The notes under the pieces: model-generated
Database searches by the model: none
What the model saw: the letters and a program-made list of their open reading frames with translations, nothing else
Told to the model about the DNA's origin: nothing
Assembly (NCBI GenBank): GCA_937870865.1
Contig: CALMZY010000218.1
Location: forward strand, 1-41,059
DNA from: an uncultured Lentisphaerota bacterium
GTDB taxonomy: Bacteria > Verrucomicrobiota > Kiritimatiellia > CAIQIC01 > JAGNIJ01
Direction: 5' to 3'
Length of the DNA: 41,059 bases
Shown here: positions 1,648 to 16,778 of the stretch, in pieces
Numbering within the stretch: position 1 is the first letter of the stretch
Layout of the letters: every line of letters begins with the position of its first letter
Program-made: the position numbers and the translations under genes

Positions 1648-1745
1648 TCGGTCGCGGGGGAGCTTGCGCTGCAGGCTGAGATCCTCTCGGGAGGAAAACC
1701 CTTGGAACCTGTCCGGATAATACCGGCGAAGGGAGCGGCAACAGT
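1648..1745 (+). promoter_or_regulatory. TPP (THI-box) riboswitch aptamer
   Basis: Conserved blocks read directly: GGGGGAGC, GCUGAGA, and ACCCUUGGAACCUGUCCGGAUAAUACCGGCGAAGGGA. Supporting helices are P3 GCUUGC/GCAGGC, a P3a insert UCCUC/GAGGA, and P5 CCGG/CCGG. It lies about 45 nt upstream of the ATG at 1791. Confidence 0.9.
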
Positions 1746-1790
1746 CCATCTGCCCGGCTCTTGTCCCGCCTGCCGACGCAAGGAACCGCC

Positions 1791-2831
1791 ATGGCTATCA
1801 TCGGAAAAATCACGGACGAACTCTTTCAAACTGTCATCAAGCCGCGACTCGGCGCCAAGCGGCCCGAGGTCGCCGTCGGCCCGGAACAGGGCGTGGATGT
1901 CGGCATCGTCGAACTCGGCGATTACGCGATGGCGATGACGTCCGACCCGGTGTTCATCGTCCCGGCCTACGGGTTCGAGCGCTCGGCCTGGTTCGCGATC
2001 CATATCCTCGCCAGCGACGCGGTGACCTCCGGACTCGCCCCCGCATACCTCACGATCGATCTGAACCTTCCGCCGGACCTGTCCGACGCCGACTTCGCGC
2101 TCATGTGGGAGATCATCCACCGCGAATGCGAGAAGATGGGCGCGGCGATCGTGACGGGCCACACCGGCCGCTACGAAAACTGCAATTACCCCATGATCGG
2201 CGGCGCGACGTTCATGGCGCTCGGGCCGCGCGACGCCTATTGCTCGCCGAAGTTCTGCAGGCCCGGCGACAAGATCATCATCACCAAGGGCCCCGCCATC
2301 GAGGCCACCGGCATCTTCGCCGCGATGTTTCCCGATCGGATCGAAAAGCAGTTCGGCGCCGCGCTTCGCAAGGAGGCGGAGAACGTGTTCTACAAGATGT
2401 CGATCGTGGACGACGCGCGCATCGCCGCGTCCGTCGGCACGCGCGACAAGGGCGTGTCCGCGATGCACGACGCCACCGAGTACGGCATCCGCGGCGGCCT
2501 GCACGAATTCGCGAAGGCCGCCCGGCTCGGGCTCGTCGTCCACAAGGACGAGATTGTCGTCACCCCGGCCGTGAAGGAAATCTGCGAGATGTTCGCCATC
2601 GATCCGCTCAACAGCATCAGCGAAGGAACGCTGATCGCGACGGTCAGGCCCCACGCGGCGAACGAGGTGTTGAAACGGCTGCGCGACAACGGAATCGCCG
2701 CGTCCATCTGCGGCGAAATGACCGACGAGGCGAAGGGGATCCAGATGGTGGAAGGCGGCCGGCAGAAACCGTTCGATCACCCGGGTGTTGACCCGTTCTG
2801 GGAGGCGTTCTACAAAGCTCTCAAGTCATGA
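1791..2831 (+). CDS. AIR synthase-related (PurM/HypE/ThiL-fold) protein, function unknown
   Basis: ATG at 1791 is preceded by AAGGA. The N-domain (GVDVGIVELGDYAMAMTSDPVF, ASDAVTSGLAP) and the IVTGHTGRYEN segment resemble the HypE/PurM superfamily, and the C-domain has DATEYGIRGGL. The upstream TTG start of the ORF table is less likely. Confidence 0.8.
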   Translation: MAIIGKITDELFQTVIKPRLGAKRPEVAVGPEQGVDVGIVELGDYAMAMTSDPVFIVPAYGFERSAWFAIHILASDAVTSGLAPAYLTIDLNLPPDLSDADFALMWEIIHRECEKMGAAIVTGHTGRYENCNYPMIGGATFMALGPRDAYCSPKFCRPGDKIIITKGPAIEATGIFAAMFPDRIEKQFGAALRKEAENVFYKMSIVDDARIAASVGTRDKGVSAMHDATEYGIRGGLHEFAKAARLGLVVHKDEIVVTPAVKEICEMFAIDPLNSISEGTLIATVRPHAANEVLKRLRDNGIAASICGEMTDEAKGIQMVEGGRQKPFDHPGVDPFWEAFYKALKS

Positions 2832-4429
2832 CGAGATACGGATACTGGATAGCGCTTCTGATCCTTGTCGCCGCCCCTTATACGACAGGTCTTCGTCATG
2901 AGTTTGTCTACGACGACCACGGCTCAATCGTCGAGAATCCGTTTCTCGACGATCGGGATTGCCTCAAGAAACTGCTGAGATTTCAGACGATCACGGACGC
3001 TTCAGTCCCGGACGGCCGGCGGCCCGTCGTGGTCTTAAGCTACCTGCTCGACCGCGCCGTCTGGGGTCTGCGGCCCGCCGGCTTTCACGCCACCAATCTC
3101 CTGCTGCATCTGGGCGTTGTCCTTCTCCTTGCCGCCCTCGCCCGCCGGTTGCAGCCCGAACTGGGGCCCTTCCCCGGCTTCGCCGCGGCACTGCTTTACG
3201 GGCTGCATCCCGTCCTGACAGAGGCGGTGCAATGCCCGGCATTTCGCGAGGATCTACTGGTAACGCTTTTTCTGTTGCTCTCTCTTCTTGCTGCAACACG
3301 CGCAAGAACCGCCTGGCTCTCGGTCCCCGCGCTGATCGCCGCCCTGGCCTCCAAAGAGTCGGCCGCCGTCACCCCGATCCTGATGCTCTGGATGTGGTTC
3401 TGCTTCCCCGCAACCCGCCTGCCGCGGAAGCTCGCGACGACTGCGGCGGCGGTCACCGCGACGCCTGTCATTGTCTTCGCGGTTTTGTGGCTGAACAGCG
3501 GCCCGCTTCAGGCTTCGTCTTCGGAACACGCCGCGATGGCGCTCGCGTATCCGGCGAACCTGATGACGCTCCCCTGGCTATGGCTGAAACAGGTCCTGCT
3601 CCTGCTGGTGCCTCATCCCCTGATCGTCGATCACGTGATCATGTCGGTGACGCAGTTCACGGACTGGCGGTTTCTGTCCGGCGCCGCGGCCGTTGTGGCC
3701 TGCGGCGTTCTCGCCATGGCCCTCCCGCGCCGCGCGCCGTGGATCGCGTTCGGGGTCGGCTGGATGCTGATCAGCTTTGTCCCGGTCTCCAACATCGTTC
3801 CGCTTCACAATCCATTCGCAGAACGTTACGTCTATTTGACCGCCGTCGGCTTTTGCCTCCTCGCGGCGCGCCTGCTTTCCCTGACGCCCGAGCGGGAAAC
3901 GGCCTGCGGCTCCGCGCAACCCGGCGCGAAAACCTGCATCCACAGGCGCGCCCTGTTGCTCGCGTTGATCTGCATGACCTGCACGGGGCTGACGGTCCGC
4001 CGGCTCGCCGACTGGGCAGATGACTCGACGCTCTGGTCCAGAACGCTTCTGCAGGAACCGCGCAGCGCCCGGGCGCACACGTGGATGGGGCTGGGTTGTA
4101 AAAGGGCGGGCGACTTCGACAAGGCCCTGCAGCATTTCATGGAGGCCGACCGCCTGAATCCGCTGGAGGTCTCCGGCCTGATCAACATCGCGGTCCTTCA
4201 CGGCCAGCAAGGCCGGTTTGCGGAGGCGGAGGCGCTTCTGCGCGAGGCGATCCGTCGCCGCCCGGACAAGCCCGACGCGCACTGGAACCTGGCGGTCGCG
4301 CTCGACGCGCTGGGCCGCAAGGACGAGGCCATGGCTGAAGTGCAGCAGACGTTGAGGCTTGATCCGCGTTACCCGGCGGCAGTGACGCTCATGACACAGC
4401 CAGCCCCAGAAAGCGAAAGCAACCCATGA
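2828..4429 (+). CDS. TMTC-like polytopic membrane protein with C-terminal TPR repeats (putative GT-C glycosyl/mannosyltransferase)
   Basis: It has an N-terminal FVYDDHGSIVENP motif, many hydrophobic spans, and C-terminal TPR-like repeats (AHTWMGLGCKRAGDFDKALQHF.., NIAVLHGQQGRFAEAEALL.., AHWNLAVALDALGRKDEA). ATGA overlap with the upstream gene. Confidence 0.7.
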   Translation: MTRYGYWIALLILVAAPYTTGLRHEFVYDDHGSIVENPFLDDRDCLKKLLRFQTITDASVPDGRRPVVVLSYLLDRAVWGLRPAGFHATNLLLHLGVVLLLAALARRLQPELGPFPGFAAALLYGLHPVLTEAVQCPAFREDLLVTLFLLLSLLAATRARTAWLSVPALIAALASKESAAVTPILMLWMWFCFPATRLPRKLATTAAAVTATPVIVFAVLWLNSGPLQASSSEHAAMALAYPANLMTLPWLWLKQVLLLLVPHPLIVDHVIMSVTQFTDWRFLSGAAAVVACGVLAMALPRRAPWIAFGVGWMLISFVPVSNIVPLHNPFAERYVYLTAVGFCLLAARLLSLTPERETACGSAQPGAKTCIHRRALLLALICMTCTGLTVRRLADWADDSTLWSRTLLQEPRSARAHTWMGLGCKRAGDFDKALQHFMEADRLNPLEVSGLINIAVLHGQQGRFAEAEALLREAIRRRPDKPDAHWNLAVALDALGRKDEAMAEVQQTLRLDPRYPAAVTLMTQPAPESESNP

Positions 4430-4995
4430 TCACCATCGTGTCCGGCATTCCGCGCTCGGGAACCTCCATGATGATGCAGATGCTGAAAGCCGGCGGCCTC
4501 GATCCGCTCGCCGATCATCTGCGAAAGGCCGATGACGACAACCCGCAGGGCTACTTCGAATTTGAAAAGGTCAAGCGGCTCCGGCAGGACAAATCATGGA
4601 TCAGCCAGGCGGAGGGCAAAGTCGTCAAGGTGATCACCCAACTGCTGCCCGACCTGCCGGCGGACCGCACGTACAAAGTGATCCTGATGAACCGCGACCT
4701 CGACGAGGTTCTGGCTTCGCAGAGCGAGATGCTCAAGCGGCGCGGCGAATCGGGAGCCATCGCCCAGGCGGACGAGCTGAAAGGCGCGTTCCGGAAACAC
4801 ATCGAGCAGATGCGCACATGGCTGAAGCAGTGCCGGCACTTCGAAGTCCTGGAAATCCATTACGCCGACACCGTGAAGGATCCGCGGCCGCAGGCGGAGG
4901 CCATCGCCCGATTCCTCGGCGTGCCGCTGAACATCGACGCCATGGCCCGGAGCGTCAACCGGAAGCTCTACCGGCAGGTAAAAAAGGACGCTTAA
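4426..4995 (+). CDS. Sulfotransferase-family protein
   Basis: The N-terminal PAPS 5'-phosphosulfate-binding loop (GIPRSGTSMM) and the small ~190-aa size fit this family. ATGA overlap with the upstream gene. Confidence 0.65.
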   Translation: MITIVSGIPRSGTSMMMQMLKAGGLDPLADHLRKADDDNPQGYFEFEKVKRLRQDKSWISQAEGKVVKVITQLLPDLPADRTYKVILMNRDLDEVLASQSEMLKRRGESGAIAQADELKGAFRKHIEQMRTWLKQCRHFEVLEIHYADTVKDPRPQAEAIARFLGVPLNIDAMARSVNRKLYRQVKKDA

Positions 4996-5441
4996 GGCTT
5001 CGCCTTGTGCTGGTCGATCAAGCCCTGCAAATGCTTGATGTATTCTTCCGCGCCGCCGGGCTCGTAGCCGGTCTTCGCCGCCACATCGCCCTGCGGGCCG
5101 AAGAGGAGAATCGTGGGAAATCCCTGAACGGAGTACTTCTCCGCGAGCGCCTGGTTGGCTTCCTTCCGCTTTTTCGACTGCGGCGTCTGCCGCGGGAAAT
5201 CGATCAGGACACAGACGAGATTCTGTTCGGCGTAATCCTTGAATGCCTTTTTGCTGAACACTTCCTTATCCAGCCTCTTGCACCAGCCGCACCAGTCGGA
5301 GCCGGAGAAATCCACGAGCACGTACTTGCCAGACTCTTTTGCCTTCGCCAACGCCTCATCAAAATCCTCGGTCCAGAGTCCCGCAAACGAAAACAGCGCA
5401 CCGCCCAACAACATAACCGCGATCAACAGGCTCTTCTTCAT
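4992..5441 (-). CDS. Secreted thioredoxin-fold protein (WCGWC active site)
   Basis: ATG at 5441 is preceded by AGGAGA. It has a signal peptide (MKKSLLIAVMLLGGALFSFA) and the motif DFSGSDWCGWCKRLDKE. Confidence 0.8.
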   Translation of the reverse strand: MKKSLLIAVMLLGGALFSFAGLWTEDFDEALAKAKESGKYVLVDFSGSDWCGWCKRLDKEVFSKKAFKDYAEQNLVCVLIDFPRQTPQSKKRKEANQALAEKYSVQGFPTILLFGPQGDVAAKTGYEPGGAEEYIKHLQGLIDQHKAKP

Positions 5442-5468
5442 GAGATTTCTCCTACGGGACACCCTACC

Positions 5469-5503
5469 AAAAAACGGCGGGAATTCCATGCGGAATCCCC
5501 GCC
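5469..5503 (-). terminator. Rho-independent terminator downstream of ilvC
   Basis: The minus-strand RNA reads GGCGGGGAUUCC-GCAU-GGAAUUCCCGCC followed by GUUUUUUGG. This is a GC-rich 12-bp stem (one mismatch) plus a U-tract. Confidence 0.8.
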
Positions 5504-5535
5504 GCCTCTGACTTCTGATTTCTGACCGCTGACCT

Positions 5536-6633
5536 CTAGTATTTCCGTCCGCCGACGCCCTTCGTGCCGGCGGTGATGGCTTTGGCCTTCTCGTGCGGAC
5601 GCAGGGCGCGGACGGCCGCGCCGGCGCGCCACATCTCGGAGTCGCGGATGGCGCCCAGCTCCTTCGCCACGCGCTCCTGGTAGCCCTTCGCGCCGCAGAC
5701 CTTGATCACGCGCTCAGCTTCCTTGCCGGTCGAGACGCGCTTGTACAGCTCGTTGAACACGGGCAGGACGGCCTTCTTGAACTTCGGGCTCCAGTCCAAC
5801 GCGCCGCGCTGGGCCGTCGCCGAGCAGTTCGAGAACATCCAGTCCATGCCGTTCTCGTCCACCAGCCGGATCAGGCTCTGGGTCAGTTCCTCGACCGTCT
5901 CGTTGAACGCTTCGCTCGGGGTGTGCCCGTGCTTGCGGAGCGTCTCGTACTGGGCCTCCATCGTGCCCGCGAGGCAGCCCATCAGCACGCCACGCTCGCC
6001 GGTCAGGTCGCTGTTCGTCTCGTGCGGGAACGTCGTCGGGAACAGGTAGCCCGAGCCGATCCCGATGCCGAGGGCGAGACAGCGGTTCTTCGCGTTTCCG
6101 GTTGCGTCCTGCGCCACCGCGAAACTGGAGTTGATGCCGACGCCCGACAGGAAGTTACGGCGAACGGACGTGCCCGAGCCCTTCGGCGCGACCATGATCA
6201 CATCGACCCACTTCGGAGGAACGACGCCGCTCTTATCCTTATAGGTGATGGAGAAGCCGTGGCTGAAGTAGAGCGCGTCGCCCTTCTTCAGGTTCTTCTT
6301 CACGATGGGCCAGACCGCACGCTGGGCCGCGTCGGACACGAGCATCTGGATGACCGTGCCCTTCTTGACCGCGGTCGGGATATCGAACAGCGTTTTGCCG
6401 GGCACCCAGCCGTCGGCCTTCGCGCGATCCCAGTCGCGCTTGAACTCCGGCGCCTGGCCGATGATGACCTTGAAGCCGTTGTCCTTCAGGTTGAGCGCCT
6501 GCGCGGGGCCCTGGACGCCGTAGCCGAGAATCGCGATCGTCTCACCCTTCAGCACCTTGTGCGCCTTGGAGAGCGGGAACTCTTTGCGGGTGATGACTTT
6601 TTCCTTCACGCCGCCGAAATCAATGATGGCCAT
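5536..6633 (-). CDS. ilvC: Ketol-acid reductoisomerase
   Basis: 365 aa with an N-terminal Rossmann motif (ILGYGVQGPAQALNLKDNG) and typical KARI blocks (FSHGF, APKGSG, LTGERGVLMG). AAGGAGA precedes the ATG. Confidence 0.95.
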   Translation of the reverse strand: MAIIDFGGVKEKVITRKEFPLSKAHKVLKGETIAILGYGVQGPAQALNLKDNGFKVIIGQAPEFKRDWDRAKADGWVPGKTLFDIPTAVKKGTVIQMLVSDAAQRAVWPIVKKNLKKGDALYFSHGFSITYKDKSGVVPPKWVDVIMVAPKGSGTSVRRNFLSGVGINSSFAVAQDATGNAKNRCLALGIGIGSGYLFPTTFPHETNSDLTGERGVLMGCLAGTMEAQYETLRKHGHTPSEAFNETVEELTQSLIRLVDENGMDWMFSNCSATAQRGALDWSPKFKKAVLPVFNELYKRVSTGKEAERVIKVCGAKGYQERVAKELGAIRDSEMWRAGAAVRALRPHEKAKAITAGTKGVGGRKY

Positions 6634-6702: not shown

Positions 6703-6758
6703 TTGACGAATCTAAATTCTGACTATATATTATGACTAGTTGTTCATATTATATAGTC
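6703..6758 (+). promoter_or_regulatory. Putative sigma70-type promoter plus inverted-repeat operator of the first phd-vapC module
   Basis: TTGACG (6703-6708), 17 nt, TATATT (6726-6731). A 14-bp inverted repeat, GACTATATATTATG (6721-6734) and CATATTATATAGTC (6745-6758), overlaps the -10 box and ends at the ATG. Confidence 0.45.
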
Positions 6759-7001
6759 ATGAAAATGTCCGTCAGCGAGTTCAAGGCCAAATGCACGTGG
6801 GTTCTGCGGGAAGTGTCCACCGAGTACAAGTCCGTGGAGGTCACCAACCACGGGAAGGTCATCGCCGTGGTTGAATCGCCGAAGCCGGAGAAGAAACACG
6901 CGCCGAAGAAGCTGCTGGGTTCGCTCGCGGGAACCGCGAGCCACGTTGGCGACATCGTGTCGCCGGCCGTGAACACCAAGGACTGGGACGCCGCCCGATG
7001 A
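6759..7001 (+). CDS. Type II antitoxin, Phd/YefM-like
   Basis: A small ORF (MKMSVSEFKAKCTWVLREV...VTNHGKVIAVV) with an ATGA overlap to a PIN toxin gene. Start is 6759 or 6765; 6732 would lie inside the predicted promoter. Confidence 0.75.
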   Translation: MKMSVSEFKAKCTWVLREVSTEYKSVEVTNHGKVIAVVESPKPEKKHAPKKLLGSLAGTASHVGDIVSPAVNTKDWDAAR

Positions 7002-7396
7002 AGTACGTGCTCGACACCCACGCGTGGTTCTGGAGCCTCACGGATCCCGATCAGCTTCCGGCAAAGGTCCGGGCCGCTCTCGAGAATCCACGCAACGCGC
7101 CCTTCGGGCTGGCCGCGATCAGCCTTTGGGAGCTGTCGAAACTGGTGGAGAAAGCCCGGATCACGCTGACCATCCCTCTCGCCGAGTGGATCCGCCGGGC
7201 AACCGATCCCGACCTGATCACAATCCTCCCCCTGACAGAGCAAGTGGCCGTCGACTCCACAACACTTCCCGGCAATTTCCGCTCAGACCCGGCGGACGAA
7301 CTGATCATCGCGACGACACGCCTCCATGACGCGACGCTGATTACTGCGGATCGGAAGATCCTCGCCTATGGCTCTGTGAAGACGCTGTGGCAGTGA
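6998..7396 (+). CDS. vapC: PIN-domain ribonuclease toxin VapC
   Basis: 132 aa with YVLDTHAWFW (first acidic residue), ISLWEL, and DPADELIIATT...LITADRKI, which are typical PIN acidic motifs. Confidence 0.85.
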   Translation: MKYVLDTHAWFWSLTDPDQLPAKVRAALENPRNAPFGLAAISLWELSKLVEKARITLTIPLAEWIRRATDPDLITILPLTEQVAVDSTTLPGNFRSDPADELIIATTRLHDATLITADRKILAYGSVKTLWQ

Positions 7397-7399
7397 ATG

Positions 7400-7454
7400 T
7401 CCAAGGATTGGAAAAATCCTCGCCATTTTTCCCAAGGCTTGGAAAAATCCCCCC
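7400..7454. repeat. Dispersed double-hairpin repeat, copy A (TCCAAGGATTGGAAAAA ... TTTTTCCCAAGGCTTGGAAAAA)
   Basis: Two AT-rich palindromic units about 9 nt apart, followed by a C-run. Related copies lie at 14851-14909 and 32314-32366. Confidence 0.6.
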
Positions 7455-7709
7455 GTGCCGCGACAATTCAACAACCTGACCGCTTCGGAGCTGTACTGCC
7501 CGCGCTGCAAGGCGTCGCGGCCGGTGCGGGAGCGGCTCCTACTCGTCCTGCCGCACGCGGAAATCTTCGACTACCGCTGCACGGCTTGCGGAGAATCGCT
7601 GGGCTCGCGCGAGGTGAAAGCCAACCCGCTGGCGGCCGTGCAACGCAAGCCGCGCACGCACACGGCATCCCCCGGCCGCAAGCCGCAGGGCTATCTGCCC
7701 GGAAAATGA
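7455..7709 (+). CDS. Small zinc-ribbon protein (CPRC...CTAC), hypothetical
   Basis: 84-aa ORF with a GTG start. Two CxxC pairs (YCPRCKA, RCTACGE) are 24 residues apart, and the tail is basic. No clear SD. Confidence 0.5.
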   Translation: MPRQFNNLTASELYCPRCKASRPVRERLLLVLPHAEIFDYRCTACGESLGSREVKANPLAAVQRKPRTHTASPGRKPQGYLPGK

Positions 7710-7766
7710 TTGGTGCGGCAGCGTCGCAGGTATATGATTCGACATGGCTCAAACGAGGGGGTGTTC

Positions 7767-10700
7767 ATGAAGACCACGAAGTTGTTCCTCTGCCTTCTTC
7801 TCGCGATCGTTCCTTGGGCGGCTGATGCCGCGTTCACGGTTTCCGTGTCGCCGGGCACGATCGCCTGGGATTCGAACACCTGGGTGAACGTGCGCATCAC
7901 CAACAACGCGGCGCAGGGCTACGCCGCCAACCTGACGATCTACATCGATCCGGACACCAACGGCGTGGTCGGTCCGATGGACGTTCCGTTGTTCAGCGTC
8001 ACGCTGAGGGACGGCCGGACCAACCGGTTCGGCGCCGTGACGATTCCGGACGACGACGACGGGATCACCAACAGAGCGATCCTCACGCGCATCCCCTGCT
8101 TCGGCATCGACAACCCCCTGCACACGGTCGGGCGCTACATCGTGCAAGTGGCGTTCACGAACGGGACGTCGCCCGCGGTCACCACGTTCACCGTCACCCA
8201 GCCGACAACGACCGTGTACATCACCGGCCGCGTGCTCCGCTACGGCGACGACGCCCCGATCGGCGCGGCGTTCCTCGATATCTATCCGTTCACGCGGGCC
8301 GCGGGATTCACGCCCGGCACGTGGACCGACACGAACGGCGCGTTCCGGCTGTATCTTCCGCCGAGCATGACCGGCAACGTCCAGGGCATTGTGGCAGGCG
8401 GCTTCGGGTACTTCAGCGTGCCGTACCGGGATGACATCGGCGAATGGATTTCCGGCTACCGTTTCCAGGGCGACCTGCATGCCGGCGACAACGCGCTGAC
8501 CAATTCGCTGCGGCTCGTCGTCGCCGACGGATCGCACGTGCTCAGCCTGTCGGGCCAGGTGGTCGACGGCGAGACGAACCCCATTCCCTTCGCGCTCGTG
8601 ATGTTCGAAGAAGACAGCGAGGATGACAGCGACGCCGGGTCACTGGCCGTGGCGGACATCAACGGCAACTTTTCCCTGCCGGTACCTGACGGCATGACCG
8701 GGTGGGTCGGCGCGGAAGGCGGGTTCCTGAACCTGCGGGGGTTCGTCGCCAGCGGCAACGGGCCGTATACCGTGACACAGGATATTTCCGGCATCGTGGT
8801 CGAATGCCCGACGGCCACGATTCTCGCGCGCAACCTCGTGATCGACTCGGGCACCGGCGCCGGTGTCGCAGGCGTTGGAGCGGGCTTCGAGGCGGACATG
8901 TATTGGAGCTCCGCGTACAGCGTGACCGGCGGCTTGTACGAAATCGGGCTTGTTTCAGAAACGTACAAGGCGGGCATTGAAGACGACATGCTTCCGTGTC
9001 TCGGCTACAGCGGCGCGTCCGGCTACGAAGGCCTCGCGATCACGAACGCGGGCATCTACACGAACGTGCCGTTTTATCTCATGCGCGGCTACCCTCTCTC
9101 GGGGACCGTCTTCGATCGGCAGACCAACACGCTGACGGACGGCAAGGTGCAGGTCAACCCGTTCGGGAGCTGGAACGGTAACGACGTGGACGTGAACCGG
9201 CACGGCGTCTACGTCATGCTGGCGGCAACGGGATCCTACCAGGTGACCGCGGAGGATTTTGCGGGTTACCTGAGCCAGAGATACACCAATCATTTCACGT
9301 GGGAATGGGATAACGGACCGGTTGCGGACCCGGTGATCGTGTCCACAAACGGCGCGACGAACATCAATTTCTTCCTGCCCGCGGCGGCGTATATCCGCGG
9401 CACTGTGCTCGGGACCAATTCGCCGATGGAGAACGTACAGGTCGAGGCGCGGGTCCGCGTGGACGAGGACAATATCGAGGGGCGCGGCAACACCCAGACC
9501 GGACCGGACGGCTCGTACGAGCTCGCCGTGCCCGCCGGCGCGGACTACATCGTCGGTGTGCAGGCGCCGAACGGCACGTTCTTCCTTCCCCAGTACTGGA
9601 GCAACAAAATGCAGGACTCCGAGGCGGACCTCGTGGCGACCGACACGAACGCACCGGCGGAGAACATCAACTTCAACCTGCAGCTCGGCGGGCGCATCGA
9701 GGGCGCCGTGTACGAGCCCGACGGTTCGACGCCCCTGATTCACACGTGGGGTTACGTGGAAGCGCGGACGACAAACGAGATGCCGTCCGGCGTGGGCGGA
9801 GACGACATCGATCAGGACGACGGCACGTATGGATTCACGGTCGCGCCCGGAATCTACCACCTGCGCGCCCAGACCGACGGGTGGCCGGACCAGTACTATG
9901 ACGGCGTTCCGGAATCGCAACGGGACCTGGCGACCCCTGTCACCGTCGAGGTCAGCCAAGTCACCATCGGCATCGACTTCACGATGCTCGTTCCGAGCTA
10001 CATCGAGGGCAATGTCACGGACGACTTCGGGCCGGTGAGCGGCATGCAAGTGCAGGTCAGCTACGTATCCGACACGAACAACTGGTGGACCTCGTGGGTC
10101 GGCCAAGGCAACTCGGATGCGTCGGGCTATTATTCCGTGGAGGTTCCGCCGGGCACGAACTACATCGTTTCGACACAACCCGACGACAGCAGTTGCTACC
10201 TGCAGCAGTACTGGAGCAACGCGACAATCGTCCAGGACGCGACGCTGGTCGAGGTGACGAACAACATGACGCTCTCCGGAATCGACTTCAGCCTGGAACT
10301 CGGCGCGCGAATCGAGGGACAGGTATGGAACGAGCTCGGCGATCCGATGGAATCCGTACAGATCGAGGCTCATCGGTTTGACACCAACGGGTCGACAATC
10401 TGGGGTGGCGGCAGCCAAACGGACGGCGACGGCACCTACGGCTTCGTCGTGCCGGTCGGCACGGGCTATTTCGTGCGCGCCGGCCGGCCGTGGTCCGTCA
10501 GCGAGGAGAACTGGTGGTATCCGGAGACCTTCTACAGCAACAAGTTTTCCGAACCCACTTGCGATCACATCCGGGCTGATGCGGGTGCCACCGTGAGCAA
10601 CGTCGATTTTCATCTCGCGCTTGGATACCGGGTTGAAGGATTTGTCTACGATTCCGACGGCGTTTCTCCCGCCCCCAACGGTTTCGTGTTCAGCGAGGAG

Positions 10701-11405
10701 ACATCCGGGCCCTTGCATCACTTTGGCGCCACGCAGTGCGAGGGCGACGGATCCTACCAGGTCTGCCTGCCCAACCATCTGCCGCTGCATCTTTGCGGAA
10801 CGGCCCAGGACCGGGTGCCGGAGTATTACGACAACGTCTACAGCGGCGAGCAGGCAACGGCCATCCAGCCCGCCGCCATGACGACGACGCGCGTCGATTT
10901 CGCGCTGTACTCCTGGACGGAGGACGCCGACGGCGACGGTCTGTTTAACTACCAGGAGGACACGCGGCCGGACGGCGTCTTCAATCCCATCCAGGACTGG
11001 TCGTCCTACGTCACCAACCACACCGATGGCGACCAGATCAACGACCGGGACGAGAGAGACTGGGATATCAACCCGCAACTGCCGGACACGGACGGCGACA
11101 CATTCACCGACTGGCAGGAGACCTACGTCACCGGAACGGACGCAACGGCGTCCCCCTCCGGCTCCAACAGCTATCTCCATTGCCTGCAGACCACGCGCGT
11201 CGGAACCGACGTCATCGTGAACTGGTCCGCGGTCGAGTATGCGGGCAATTACTACATCCAGCGTTCAACGAACCTGACAAGCGGCGCGTCGTGGATCGAT
11301 TTGTTCGGTCCGATGTCCGGAACGGGCGCGGTGATGACCGTCACTGACATCAACGCACCGCCGAACTCGGCGTACCGGGTGAGGATCCCGTATATCGCGC
11401 CGTGA
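7767..11405 (+). CDS. Large secreted repeat protein (tandem CarboxypepD_reg/Cna-B-like beta-sandwich repeats, C-terminal thrombospondin type-3-like Ca-binding repeats)
   Basis: ATG at 7767 follows GAGGGGG. It has a signal peptide (MKTTKLFLCLLLAIVPWAADA). There are at least five ~100-aa repeats of the type ...YW/YYSN...INFxLxLGxRIEGxV.DxxG.P. The acidic motifs DADGDGLFNYQED, HTDGDQINDRDE and DTDGDTFTDWQE lie near the C-terminus. Confidence 0.8.
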   Translation: MKTTKLFLCLLLAIVPWAADAAFTVSVSPGTIAWDSNTWVNVRITNNAAQGYAANLTIYIDPDTNGVVGPMDVPLFSVTLRDGRTNRFGAVTIPDDDDGITNRAILTRIPCFGIDNPLHTVGRYIVQVAFTNGTSPAVTTFTVTQPTTTVYITGRVLRYGDDAPIGAAFLDIYPFTRAAGFTPGTWTDTNGAFRLYLPPSMTGNVQGIVAGGFGYFSVPYRDDIGEWISGYRFQGDLHAGDNALTNSLRLVVADGSHVLSLSGQVVDGETNPIPFALVMFEEDSEDDSDAGSLAVADINGNFSLPVPDGMTGWVGAEGGFLNLRGFVASGNGPYTVTQDISGIVVECPTATILARNLVIDSGTGAGVAGVGAGFEADMYWSSAYSVTGGLYEIGLVSETYKAGIEDDMLPCLGYSGASGYEGLAITNAGIYTNVPFYLMRGYPLSGTVFDRQTNTLTDGKVQVNPFGSWNGNDVDVNRHGVYVMLAATGSYQVTAEDFAGYLSQRYTNHFTWEWDNGPVADPVIVSTNGATNINFFLPAAAYIRGTVLGTNSPMENVQVEARVRVDEDNIEGRGNTQTGPDGSYELAVPAGADYIVGVQAPNGTFFLPQYWSNKMQDSEADLVATDTNAPAENINFNLQLGGRIEGAVYEPDGSTPLIHTWGYVEARTTNEMPSGVGGDDIDQDDGTYGFTVAPGIYHLRAQTDGWPDQYYDGVPESQRDLATPVTVEVSQVTIGIDFTMLVPSYIEGNVTDDFGPVSGMQVQVSYVSDTNNWWTSWVGQGNSDASGYYSVEVPPGTNYIVSTQPDDSSCYLQQYWSNATIVQDATLVEVTNNMTLSGIDFSLELGARIEGQVWNELGDPMESVQIEAHRFDTNGSTIWGGGSQTDGDGTYGFVVPVGTGYFVRAGRPWSVSEENWWYPETFYSNKFSEPTCDHIRADAGATVSNVDFHLALGYRVEGFVYDSDGVSPAPNGFVFSEETSGPLHHFGATQCEGDGSYQVCLPNHLPLHLCGTAQDRVPEYYDNVYSGEQATAIQPAAMTTTRVDFALYSWTEDADGDGLFNYQEDTRPDGVFNPIQDWSSYVTNHTDGDQINDRDERDWDINPQLPDTDGDTFTDWQETYVTGTDATASPSGSNSYLHCLQTTRVGTDVIVNWSAVEYAGNYYIQRSTNLTSGASWIDLFGPMSGTGAVMTVTDINAPPNSAYRVRIPYIAP

Positions 11406-15597: not shown

Positions 15598-16778
15598 TGG
15601 CCCCCGCCAAGAGAGACTACTACGAGGTGCTCGGCATCCCGCGCGAGGCGTCGGCGGACGACCTGAAAAAGGCGTACCGCAAACTCGCGCTCCAGTACCA
15701 CCCGGACAAAAACCCCGGCAACGTGGAGGCAGAGGAGAAGTTCAAGGAGATCTCCGAGGCGTACGAGGTCCTGAGCGACCCCCAGAAGAAGGCGATGTAT
15801 GACCAATACGGTCACCAGGCCTTCCGCCCCGGCGCGGGCGCGGGCGCCGGGTTCGGCGGCTTCGGAATCGATCTCGAAGAAGCGCTCCGCACGTTCATGG
15901 GCGCGTTCGGCGGCGGCGGAAGCATCTTCGACAATTTCTTCGGCGGCGGCGAACCGTCGCGGGATTCCTCGATGCGCGGCGCGGATCTTCGATTCGACCT
16001 CGAAATCGAATTCGAGGAGGCGATTTTCGGTTCCCAGCGGGACGTGACCCTGCCGATCATGGACGAGTGCGAGGCCTGCAAGGGAACGGGAGCCGAGCCG
16101 GGCAGCAAGAAGGAGAAATGCCGCCGCTGCGGCGGCCGCGGCATGATGATCAGCTCGAACGGATTTTTCCAGGTCCGCCAGACCTGCCCGTCCTGCGGCG
16201 GCACCGGCGAGACCATCGCCAACCCCTGCCGCACGTGCCGCGGCGAGGGCCGCGTACGCAGCAAACGGACGCTGAACCTGAAAATTCCGGCCGGCGTCGA
16301 GACCGGTTCGCGCCTCCGGCTGGCCGGCAAAGGGGAAGGCGGCTCGCGCGGCGGGCCGGCGGGCGACCTGTACGTGGTGCTTCACGTCAAACCGCACCCG
16401 CTGTTTCAGCGCAAGGACGAGGACATCTTCATCGAGATGCCCGTGCCGTTCCACGTCGCCGCGCTCGGCGGCGAGATCAATGTTCCGACCATCCACGGCT
16501 ACACGGCCCTGAAGATCCCGCCCGGCACCGAGAGCGGCACCGTCTTCCGGCTCCGCGGCAAGGGCCTGGCCGGCGTACACGGCTTCCGCAACGGCGACCA
16601 GCACGTCCGCGTCAGCGTCGAAGTCCCGCCGAGACTGAACGGCGACCAGCGCGACGCGCTCCGCCGGTTCGCGGAAGTCTGCACCGACGCCCATCATCCG
16701 CAGCAGAGGAAGGTTCTCGACGCGGCGGAAGAGTTCTACACGCACAAGAAGGCGATGGAAGAGGGACGGGAGAAATGA
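15597..16778 (+). CDS. dnaJ: Molecular chaperone DnaJ
   Basis: ATG at 15597 overlaps the grpE TGA. It has a J-domain ([13 protein letters not shown]...YHPDKNPG), a G/F-rich region, and four CxxCxGxG zinc-finger repeats. The 606-aa ORF-table entry is an upstream artefact extension. Confidence 0.95.

Follow-up and report, generated by a model that had tools for sequence, protein, structure and literature searches.

Few signals point to thiamine genes as reliably as thiamine pyrophosphate (TPP) riboswitches, and genes newly added to their regulons have repeatedly proved to be components of the pathway or of salvage. Why, then, does a TPP riboswitch stand before an operon of three genes with no recognisable thiamine gene among them? 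The operon lies in a stretch of 41,059 nucleotides from an uncultured Lentisphaerota bacterium (contig CALMZY010000218.1, the window hereafter). An earlier note on this DNA had left two answers side by side: either the first gene encodes an unrecognised thiamine-related kinase or ligase, or a glycan/sulfation function of the genes behind it is tied to TPP status. We followed the first gene, which we call T, and its riboswitch across related loci. We find that the riboswitch accompanies T in three phyla and that T forms operons and fusions with known thiamine genes, which points to T as the regulated thiamine gene.

A genuine TPP riboswitch precedes T in the window and in other phyla

Performing cmscan over the whole window, we obtained a single Rfam match, RF00059 (TPP riboswitch), at 1646-1751 of the + strand, with 71.4 bits (E = 2.9e-12) against a gathering score of 54.3 bits. 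The match spans model positions 1-105 of 105, and P1 is formed by 1651-1655 paired with 1735-1739. The earlier note had called the aptamer unambiguous from its motifs; GGGGGAGC, GCUGAGA and ACCCUUGGAACCUGUCCGGAUAAUACCGGCGAAGGGA are all found in it, and the covariance score bears the call out. Among 27 orthologous aptamers upstream of T, both-sided compensatory changes occur in 4 of 11 predicted pairs, in P2 and P5. We are practically certain that the element is a genuine, standard TPP riboswitch.

Does the riboswitch belong to T or to this particular operon? We collected loci around T homologues, 80 from genomes and 80 from metagenomes, and later additions brought the set to about 175. In the window and in 30 of 175 other loci, spanning Verrucomicrobiota, Zixibacteria and Chloroflexota, T is immediately preceded by a TPP riboswitch on the + strand. 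A strict regular expression for the TPP motif found five loci only (Verrucomicrobial ones and one from Zixibacteria), while a looser expression found many more; of these, 20 were run against Rfam, and every one exceeded the gathering score (62-73 bits). Overall, Rfam gave scores above gathering in 23 T loci, among them L079 (69 bits), L165 (63.7 bits) and L167 (59.5 bits). We also built our own covariance model from 27 T-upstream aptamers. It gave at least 58 bits in 28 of the 160 loci scanned, every other match there staying at or below 15 bits, and it recovered all the loci found by regular expression together with L150 and L065, the aptamer of L065 being cut by the contig end. The aptamers of L165, L166 and L167 are more divergent (41-44 bits with our model), and those of L165 and L167 were confirmed by Rfam. 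Scanning 1.3 Mb with the same model, we found no TPP riboswitch elsewhere or on the opposite strand. The gap from aptamer to start codon is mostly 70-160 nt; L079, with about 450 nt, is an exception, and so is L080, where a thi4 gene intervenes. As to the synteny that the earlier note had proposed to examine, the riboswitch tracks T across three phyla.

The Zixibacteria locus L079 has an unusual leader. The TPP aptamer (5441-5540) starts 2 nt after the end of a tRNA gene (5367-5439), and the roughly 450 nt between aptamer and T are AT-rich and hold no convincing open reading frame (ORF). This riboswitch may be co-transcribed with the tRNA and freed by processing, or the copy may be decaying.

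T forms operons and fusions with thiamine genes

Which thiamine genes keep company with T? In six Dehalococcoidia loci the riboswitch heads a T-thiE operon, whose ThiE scores 200-205 bits against TIGR00693 (cutoff 145). In L080 the operon reads riboswitch-thi4-T, and the thi4 product matches the sulfide-dependent ADP-thiazole synthase (TIGR00292) with 331 bits against a cutoff of 148. A thi4-like fragment also lies just downstream of T in L057 (6974-7513), coding for 179 aa as compared with about 260-280 aa for Thi4; this ORF may be a pseudogene or the product of a sequencing frameshift.

T is, moreover, fused to ThiN (PF10120, 122-155 bits) in both orders, as T-ThiN in P0124 and P0185 and as ThiN-T in P0149. 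In L165 the T-ThiN fusion carries its own TPP riboswitch (63.7 bits in Rfam). P0271 (84% identity with P0124) belongs to the archaeon Ca. Norongarragalina meridionalis and bears the NCBI pipeline name 'ThiDN'. In the archaeal loci L162, L164 and L171, T-ThiN is divergently adjacent to thiC and to a 295-aa thiL (TIGR01379, 194.6 bits against a cutoff of 184.15). Of the five core enzymes of the Thi4-type pathway, therefore, ThiC, Thi4, ThiE/ThiN and ThiL were each seen beside T, and ThiD never. Searching 1.46 Mb around T with seed sequences and no positive control, we found no ThiD, ThiM or ThiG; the Phos_pyr_kin domain is likewise absent from the Pfam lists of the T neighbourhoods and representatives that were annotated.

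Two other apparent fusions were set aside. A T-PfkB fusion (P0204) was discounted, its contig being full of frameshifts. A T-ThiE 'fusion' (P0278), seen once and lacking all but the N-terminal portion of the ThiE domain, is possibly an artefact and is counted as an adjacency only. The contexts of the distant T representatives P0134, P0222 and P0392 were uninformative. In L165, a ribD-ribE-ribBA-ribH operon headed by a flavin mononucleotide (FMN) riboswitch (15879-16023, - strand, 100 bits) lies about 6 kb from the T-ThiN gene with its TPP riboswitch, and the riboflavin operon and T-ThiN make up a small vitamin-gene neighbourhood.

We place T in thiamine biosynthesis because four independent lines of evidence agree, namely the riboswitch in three phyla, the operons, the fusions and the adjacencies to four thi genes. 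Since T is fused to ThiN and shares operons with the non-homologous ThiE, its step should directly precede or follow thiamine-phosphate synthesis. Judged from this genomic context, T is very probably a thiamine-pathway enzyme at the ThiE/ThiN node. The first of the two earlier answers, an unrecognised thiamine-related kinase or ligase, has thereby gained strong backing from the riboswitch linkage in the window and 30 other loci, the T-thiE operons, the T-ThiN fusions and the thi4, thiC and thiL neighbours.

Genes 2 and 3 of the operon appear to be passengers

T occupies 1791-2831 (+ strand) and encodes 346 aa with AIRS_N and AIRS_C domains; its ORF runs from 1761 to 2831, and the ATG at 1791 is preceded by AAGGAA at 1780-1785. 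Gene 2 (2828-4429, + strand) encodes a 533-aa polytopic membrane protein with C-terminal tetratricopeptide (TPR) repeats, and gene 3 (4426-4995, + strand) a 189-aa sulfotransferase-family protein. ATGA overlaps join T to gene 2 at 2828-2831 and gene 2 to gene 3 at 4426-4429, and the ORF coordinates agree with the coupling of all three genes that had been described. The operon end abuts a convergent thioredoxin-like gene (4992-5489, - strand) and ilvC.

Gene 2 had been described as a TMTC-like or GT-C membrane protein with TPR repeats. The TPR part of this description stands, with TPR families above threshold; the TMTC/GT-C part lacks support, since Pfam TMTC_DUF1736 reached 16.7 bits, below its threshold of 27. 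Sequence matches of gene 2 in PDB are confined to the TPR region, and none was found outside it. The sulfotransferase call for gene 3 holds, both domains lying above threshold (Sulfotransfer_3, PF13469, 52.6 bits with a cutoff of 27; Sulfotransfer_1, PF00685, 48.3 bits with a cutoff of 22).

Could the riboswitch serve genes 2 and 3, tying a glycan/sulfation function to TPP status? The ATGA overlaps couple all three genes, and gene 2 follows T in five Verrucomicrobial loci. These five (the window, L001, L003, L081 and L082) form one clade, however, outside which gene 2 was not seen downstream of T, and no homologue of gene 3 was found in the 80 loci searched, which leaves it to the window. In L002 and L023 the riboswitch is kept with T alone and the convergent ilvC follows directly. 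L003, whose T orthologue is 75% identical, keeps the Era-T-gene 2 synteny without a TPP riboswitch upstream (region 5775-6001); TPP control of T was lost, or never gained, there within the Verrucomicrobial clade. Since the riboswitch is kept with T alone in L002 and L023 and gene 3 is confined to the window among the 80 loci searched, and since the riboswitch tracks T across phyla, we take the riboswitch to serve T, and we regard the glycan/sulfation answer of the earlier note as very improbable. On this distribution, genes 2 and 3 appear to be clade- or lineage-specific operon passengers.

T belongs to the PurM superfamily outside its named families

What kind of protein is T? Pfam gives PF00586 (AIRS N) at 36.3 bits (cutoff 24) and PF02769 (AIRS C) at 80 bits (cutoff 23.1). 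None of the curated equivalog cutoffs is reached: T scores 88.8 bits against HypE (TIGR02124, cutoff 251.6), 53.5 bits against ThiL (TIGR01379, cutoff 184.15) and 48.1 bits against SelD (TIGR00476, cutoff 125), and PurM (TIGR00878) gives no match at E<=0.01, PDB entries of PurM appearing only at E values of 1e-3 to 6e-3. The absence of a recognisable ThiL, HypE, PurM or SelD identity, as the earlier note had it, is thereby upheld. The AlphaFold2 model of T, built on a 71-sequence alignment, has a predicted local distance difference test score (pLDDT) of 94.5 and a predicted template-modelling score (pTM) of 0.92. Comparing it with PDB by Foldseek, we find HypE first (template-modelling score, TM, 0.80), ThiL at 0.66-0.70, SelD at 0.68 and then PurM; all the top matches are members of the PurM superfamily, and sequence profiles give the same ranking. 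The best sequence neighbour in PDB is HypE 2i6r (E = 2e-22). From its profile scores and predicted structure, T is best described as a member of the PurM/AIR-synthase-related superfamily outside its named families.

HypE (TIGR02124; PDB 2Z1E and 3WJP) is thus the nearest neighbour of T in sequence and structure, and it differs in several ways beyond the cutoff. The C-terminal cysteine of HypE carries the carbamoyl/cyano group, while T ends in FYKALKS without a C-terminal Cys; GHTG replaces GDTK; and no hyp genes lie nearby. The motif IVTGHTG, read in the earlier note as HypE-like, has to be reassigned, because HypE has IVTGDTK and the His of T matches GGHS of SelD. The likeness to SelD (TIGR00476; PDB 3U0O) extends to the N-terminus: T begins with MAIIGKIT, and its GK(I)S aligns with GCK20IS of SelD, the invariant GK(I) keeping the Lys without Cys/Sec, just as GGH(T) aligns with GGHS. 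Both proteins often lie beside a NifS-type lyase. In contrast to SelD, T has no Cys/Sec in the N-terminal loop and no selenium gene context.

In the wider T family, including the ThiN fusions and members of only 27-46% identity, the invariant residues are G5, K6, D36, D52, H71, D76, G123-H124-T125, D160, E171, M225-H226-D227, T229-E230, D334 and W337. The invariant Asp residues are, in our reading, those expected to bind Mg-ATP in the superfamily. Cys113 and Cys131 are invariant among close relatives, and not in the wider family, which has no invariant cysteine; the C-terminus (...DPFWEAFYKALKS) has no Cys either. These features suggest an ATP/Mg enzyme with a small substrate, not a persulfide or Fe-S protein, the absence of an invariant Cys together with the invariant Asp residues, Lys6, His124 and His226 fitting a kinase rather than a persulfide carrier.

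The family is large and highly conserved. More than 6000 clusters at 90% identity match T at E<=1e-10, and 641 clusters at 50% identity do so at E<=1e-30. Identity to the T of the window is 75-79% in other Verrucomicrobiota and 57-62% in Chloroflexota/Dehalococcoidia, WOR-3, Stahlbacteria, Krumholzibacteria, Latescibacteria, Zixibacteria, Acidobacteriota, Brocadiaceae and Syntrophobacteraceae. Members also occur in metagenome-assembled genomes (MAGs) labelled Omnitrophica, Patescibacteria and Aenigmarchaeota, and in an archaeon. The source records name the homologues 'AIR synthase family protein', 'hydrogenase maturation factor' or 'HypE' only, and the label 'HypE' is wrong. One Dehalococcoidales locus, L052, holds two T copies (4957-5991 and 7339-8373) on the same strand, 1.3 kb apart, each 58% identical to the T of the window.

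T also neighbours sulfur genes

The T loci have a second, sulfur-related context. NifS occurs within 76 T loci and MnmA within 18. NifS is present in 64 of the 128 riboswitch-less T loci, where the immediate upstream neighbour of T is NifS in 31 and NifU in 19; other neighbours in these loci are an Rrf2/CymR-like regulator, CysK, CysE, a ThrC-like protein, COG1900/NIL (homocysteine synthesis), MOSC, FdhD, NadA and MnmA. The context extends beyond Dehalococcoidia, with Rrf2-T-NifS-NifU in WOR-3, T-MnmA in Latescibacteria and NifS-NifU-MnmA-CsoR-like-T in a 'Patescibacteria group' MAG, and the ThiN-T fusion gene of L161 overlaps mnmA. The sulfur and riboswitch contexts meet in L008, L040, L051 and L125, where NifS(-NifU) is followed by the riboswitch and then by T. 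In five Dehalococcoidia loci (L004, L006, L020, L032 and L033) T is followed by a BcrA/BadF-type ATPase of the acyl-CoA dehydratase activase family (TIGR00241, 145 bits) and a MOSC-domain protein.

Which thiamine reaction could T catalyse?

The regulated target would be T itself, an ATP-dependent thiamine enzyme from an unnamed branch of the PurM/ThiL/HypE/SelD superfamily, and the locus would be an ordinary case of feedback by the end product, here on a thiamine gene missed by annotation pipelines. As the likeliest function we propose, tentatively and at somewhat less than even confidence, a non-orthologous hydroxymethylpyrimidine phosphate (HMP-P) kinase: T would convert HMP-P and ATP to the pyrophosphate (HMP-PP), a role that is usually ThiD's. 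We arrive at this function because T holds the place that ThiD has in ThiD-ThiN proteins, because ThiD alone of the five core enzymes was unseen beside T, and because ThiL, of the same fold, likewise phosphorylates a phosphomonoester. T thus resembles ThiD and the archaeal ThiDN in its position in ThiN fusions, in its operons with a thiamine monophosphate (TMP) synthase and in the proposed reaction. ThiD and T differ in having no homology (a ribokinase fold versus a PurM fold), and the function of T is drawn from context only. For the whole explanation, TPP feedback on T as a thiamine enzyme that is most likely such a kinase, we consider the case evenly balanced.

Several points weigh against this explanation. 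The GK(I/L) and GGH(T) motifs resemble those of SelD and not those of ThiL, which could mean an AMP-forming or other chemistry. The association with NifS, NifU and MnmA has no explanation under an HMP-P kinase role; as a speculative bridge, ThiD-type and pyridoxal kinases overlap, and NifS, CysK and the ThrC-like and cystathionine-synthase-like neighbours are enzymes of pyridoxal phosphate (PLP). L003, a close relative, keeps T and gene 2 without the riboswitch. The model of the expression platform given below builds on six related leaders, and the absence of ThiD near T rests in part on the seed search with no positive control.

The chief competitor of the kinase puts T in the thiazole branch, either converting ADP-thiazole (ADT) to thiazole phosphate by a SelD-like cleavage or driving the delivery of NifS sulfur to Thi4 with ATP. 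It accounts better than the kinase for the SelD-like motifs and the NifS neighbours, and several observations speak for it: Thi4 adjoins T in L057 and in L080, there within the same riboswitch operon; if thiazole phosphate is the product of T, the links to ThiE and ThiN would join consecutive steps; NifS, NifU and MnmA recur throughout the T neighbourhoods of several phyla, with the NifS(-NifU)-riboswitch-T order in four loci; and T aligns with SelD, which works with NifS-like lyases, at Lys20 and the GGH motif. A sulfide-dependent Thi4 would also be expected to be typical of the T-bearing uncultured lineages, which we take to be largely anaerobic. Yet only 3 of about 175 loci have Thi4 next to T, ADT hydrolysis requires no ATP-grasping PurM fold, a sulfur donor fused to TMP synthase would be unusual, and a persulfide relay is unlikely as Cys113 and Cys131 are not kept in the wider family, the ThiN fusions included. 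We find a thiazole-branch role unlikely, if still the most serious rival. A NifS-dependent sulfur carrier, which we initially favoured, was demoted by the ThiN fusions and these two non-conserved cysteines.

A divergent ThiL acting as a second or alternative TMP kinase would also make the ThiE/ThiN links consecutive steps. ThiL (TIGR01379; PDB 3C9T) shares with T the PurM-type fold, ATP dependence, the thiamine pathway and the proposed phosphorylation of a phosphomonoester, and the Foldseek TM of 0.66-0.70 was obtained with ThiL-TMP complexes. The score of 53.5 bits falls far from the 184.15-bit cutoff, however; the GEF and GGD motifs of ThiL are replaced by GKI and GHT in T; and a genuine ThiL (194.6 bits) is encoded beside T-ThiN in L162, L164 and L171, which makes a simple ThiL equivalence unlikely. 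This role we judge improbable. Less probable still is a general sulfur-trafficking or thiolation enzyme (for tRNA or a cofactor, for example, downstream of NifS) whose thiamine links are secondary. The counts of NifS and MnmA and the arrangements in WOR-3 and Latescibacteria would suit it, whereas the TPP riboswitches, the thiE operons and the fusions with ThiN point specifically to thiamine and T has no invariant cysteine. An AIR synthase paralog feeding ThiC was rejected, since the PurM models fail and the fusions are with ThiN, not ThiC.

Leaving the choice between the two leading functions aside, we think it rather likely that T is a thiamine enzyme distinct from ThiL, either a PurM-fold HMP-P kinase replacing ThiD or the long-missing link from Thi4 to TMP synthase, across many uncultured lineages. 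The lineages for which we propose its use are Dehalococcoidia, WOR-3, Omnitrophica, Zixibacteria, Verrucomicrobiota, and MAGs labelled Patescibacteria or DPANN-type archaea.

What would a new thiamine enzyme family mean?

An ordinary regulatory device has probably exposed a new thiamine enzyme family that is widespread in uncultured anaerobes. The T family goes unmentioned in the literature searched, the comparative genomics of Thi4 included, as far as the portions available to us extend; SEED, RegPrecise or other papers may note it. If T supplies HMP-PP or thiazole phosphate, vitamin B1 prototrophy is mis-scored in the reconstructions of many uncultured lineages, and genome-based calls of B1 auxotrophy for T-bearing groups would be systematically wrong. 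The PurM superfamily would gain a new reaction type. The tie to NifS, NifU and MnmA may indicate an additional link of thiamine synthesis to sulfur or PLP metabolism. A precedent is oarX, reported in 2024 (PMC11223231), an example of a new gene of the TPP riboswitch regulon that proved genuine.

The leader suggests a translational OFF switch

How would the riboswitch control T? We compared the leaders of six Verrucomicrobial loci (the window, L001, L002, L023, L081 and L082). CTTGAC stands at a constant distance from the aptamer in all six while its flanks have diverged, and TAnnnT follows 16-18 nt after TTGAC in every leader (TAGCTT, TATCGT, TATTTT, TAGGTT, TATGGT and TATAGT). This promoter-like element ends 7-9 nt 5' of the P1 helix. 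In the window, the putative -35 box is TTGACC (1609-1614, + strand) and the putative -10 box TAGCTT (1632-1637, + strand), with a 17-nt spacer and a predicted transcription start site (TSS) at about 1643-1646. The pair was not flagged by a simple consensus promoter scan, whose threshold is stricter. Looking for RNA-seq runs that could map the TSS, we found none.

A sequestering helix 5' of the aptamer had been proposed, in which UUCCUUGC (1636-1643, + strand) acts as an anti-Shine-Dalgarno (anti-SD) element on 1778-1785. The two are indeed an exact 8-nt complement, which is nominally unusual, being reached in about 2.5% of dinucleotide shuffles. UUCCUUGC overlaps the putative -10 box and the discriminator, upstream of the predicted TSS, and is therefore probably absent from the mRNA. 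The longest corresponding complement is only 4-6 nt in the five homologous leaders. The proposed helix thus finds no support, UUCCUUGC being probably promoter/discriminator DNA and not transcribed RNA.

The expression platform (1752-1790, + strand) offers other elements: a candidate switching element UCCCGC (1764-1769), a candidate anti-SD CUCUUG (1758-1763) and the SD AAGGAA (1780-1785). No terminator-like site was found between the aptamer and T. All six Verrucomicrobial platforms contain UYCCGC, a complement, with G-U pairs allowed, of the conserved 5' strand of P1/P2, GCGGGG (1654-1659); the UCCCGC-GCGGGG pairing is present in the unconstrained fold. When the aptamer is masked, the window's platform has a minimum-energy fold in which the SD pairs with an upstream pyrimidine tract. 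The SD pairs likewise in the platforms of L001, L002 and L023, although for these the P1 constraint had not been set as intended. The lack of a terminator, the SD-pairing fold and the kept UYCCGC suggest a conventional translational OFF switch.

In such a switch, plentiful TPP would most likely repress translation of the downstream operon. With TPP bound, the P1/P2 5' strand GCGGGG would be held within the aptamer, and the platform would fold on itself, pairing the SD AAGGAA. When TPP is absent, UCCCGC of the platform would pair with GCGGGG and the ribosome site would be freed. The system resembles known TPP riboswitch operons (THI element) in its full-length match, canonical cores, position 5' of a same-strand operon and feedback on a thiamine gene. 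It differs in that the family of the first gene is absent from the thiamine annotations found, and its platform is apparently translational, with no terminator.

Other features of the window and of the T loci

Era lies directly upstream of T in L001, L003 and L081. In the window only, a gene for a PaaX-like regulator (685-1491, - strand; PaaX_M Cas2-like and PaaX_C domains) stands between the Era GTPase gene and the riboswitch, and it looks like an insertion that has left the promoter and riboswitch undisturbed. About 1.6 kb upstream of T in L048, a Brocadiaceae MAG, we found an Acido-Lenti-1 small RNA (RF01687, 44.5 bits; 4309-4354, - strand). Farther along the window, an 89-aa ORF with no Pfam match overlaps the gene of a 132-aa PIN-domain protein (6732-7396, + strand), typical of a VapBC-type toxin-antitoxin pair. 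The gene at 7710-11405 (+ strand), which bears no relation to the riboswitch operon, encodes a 1231-aa secreted protein with repeated CarboxypepD_reg-like domains.

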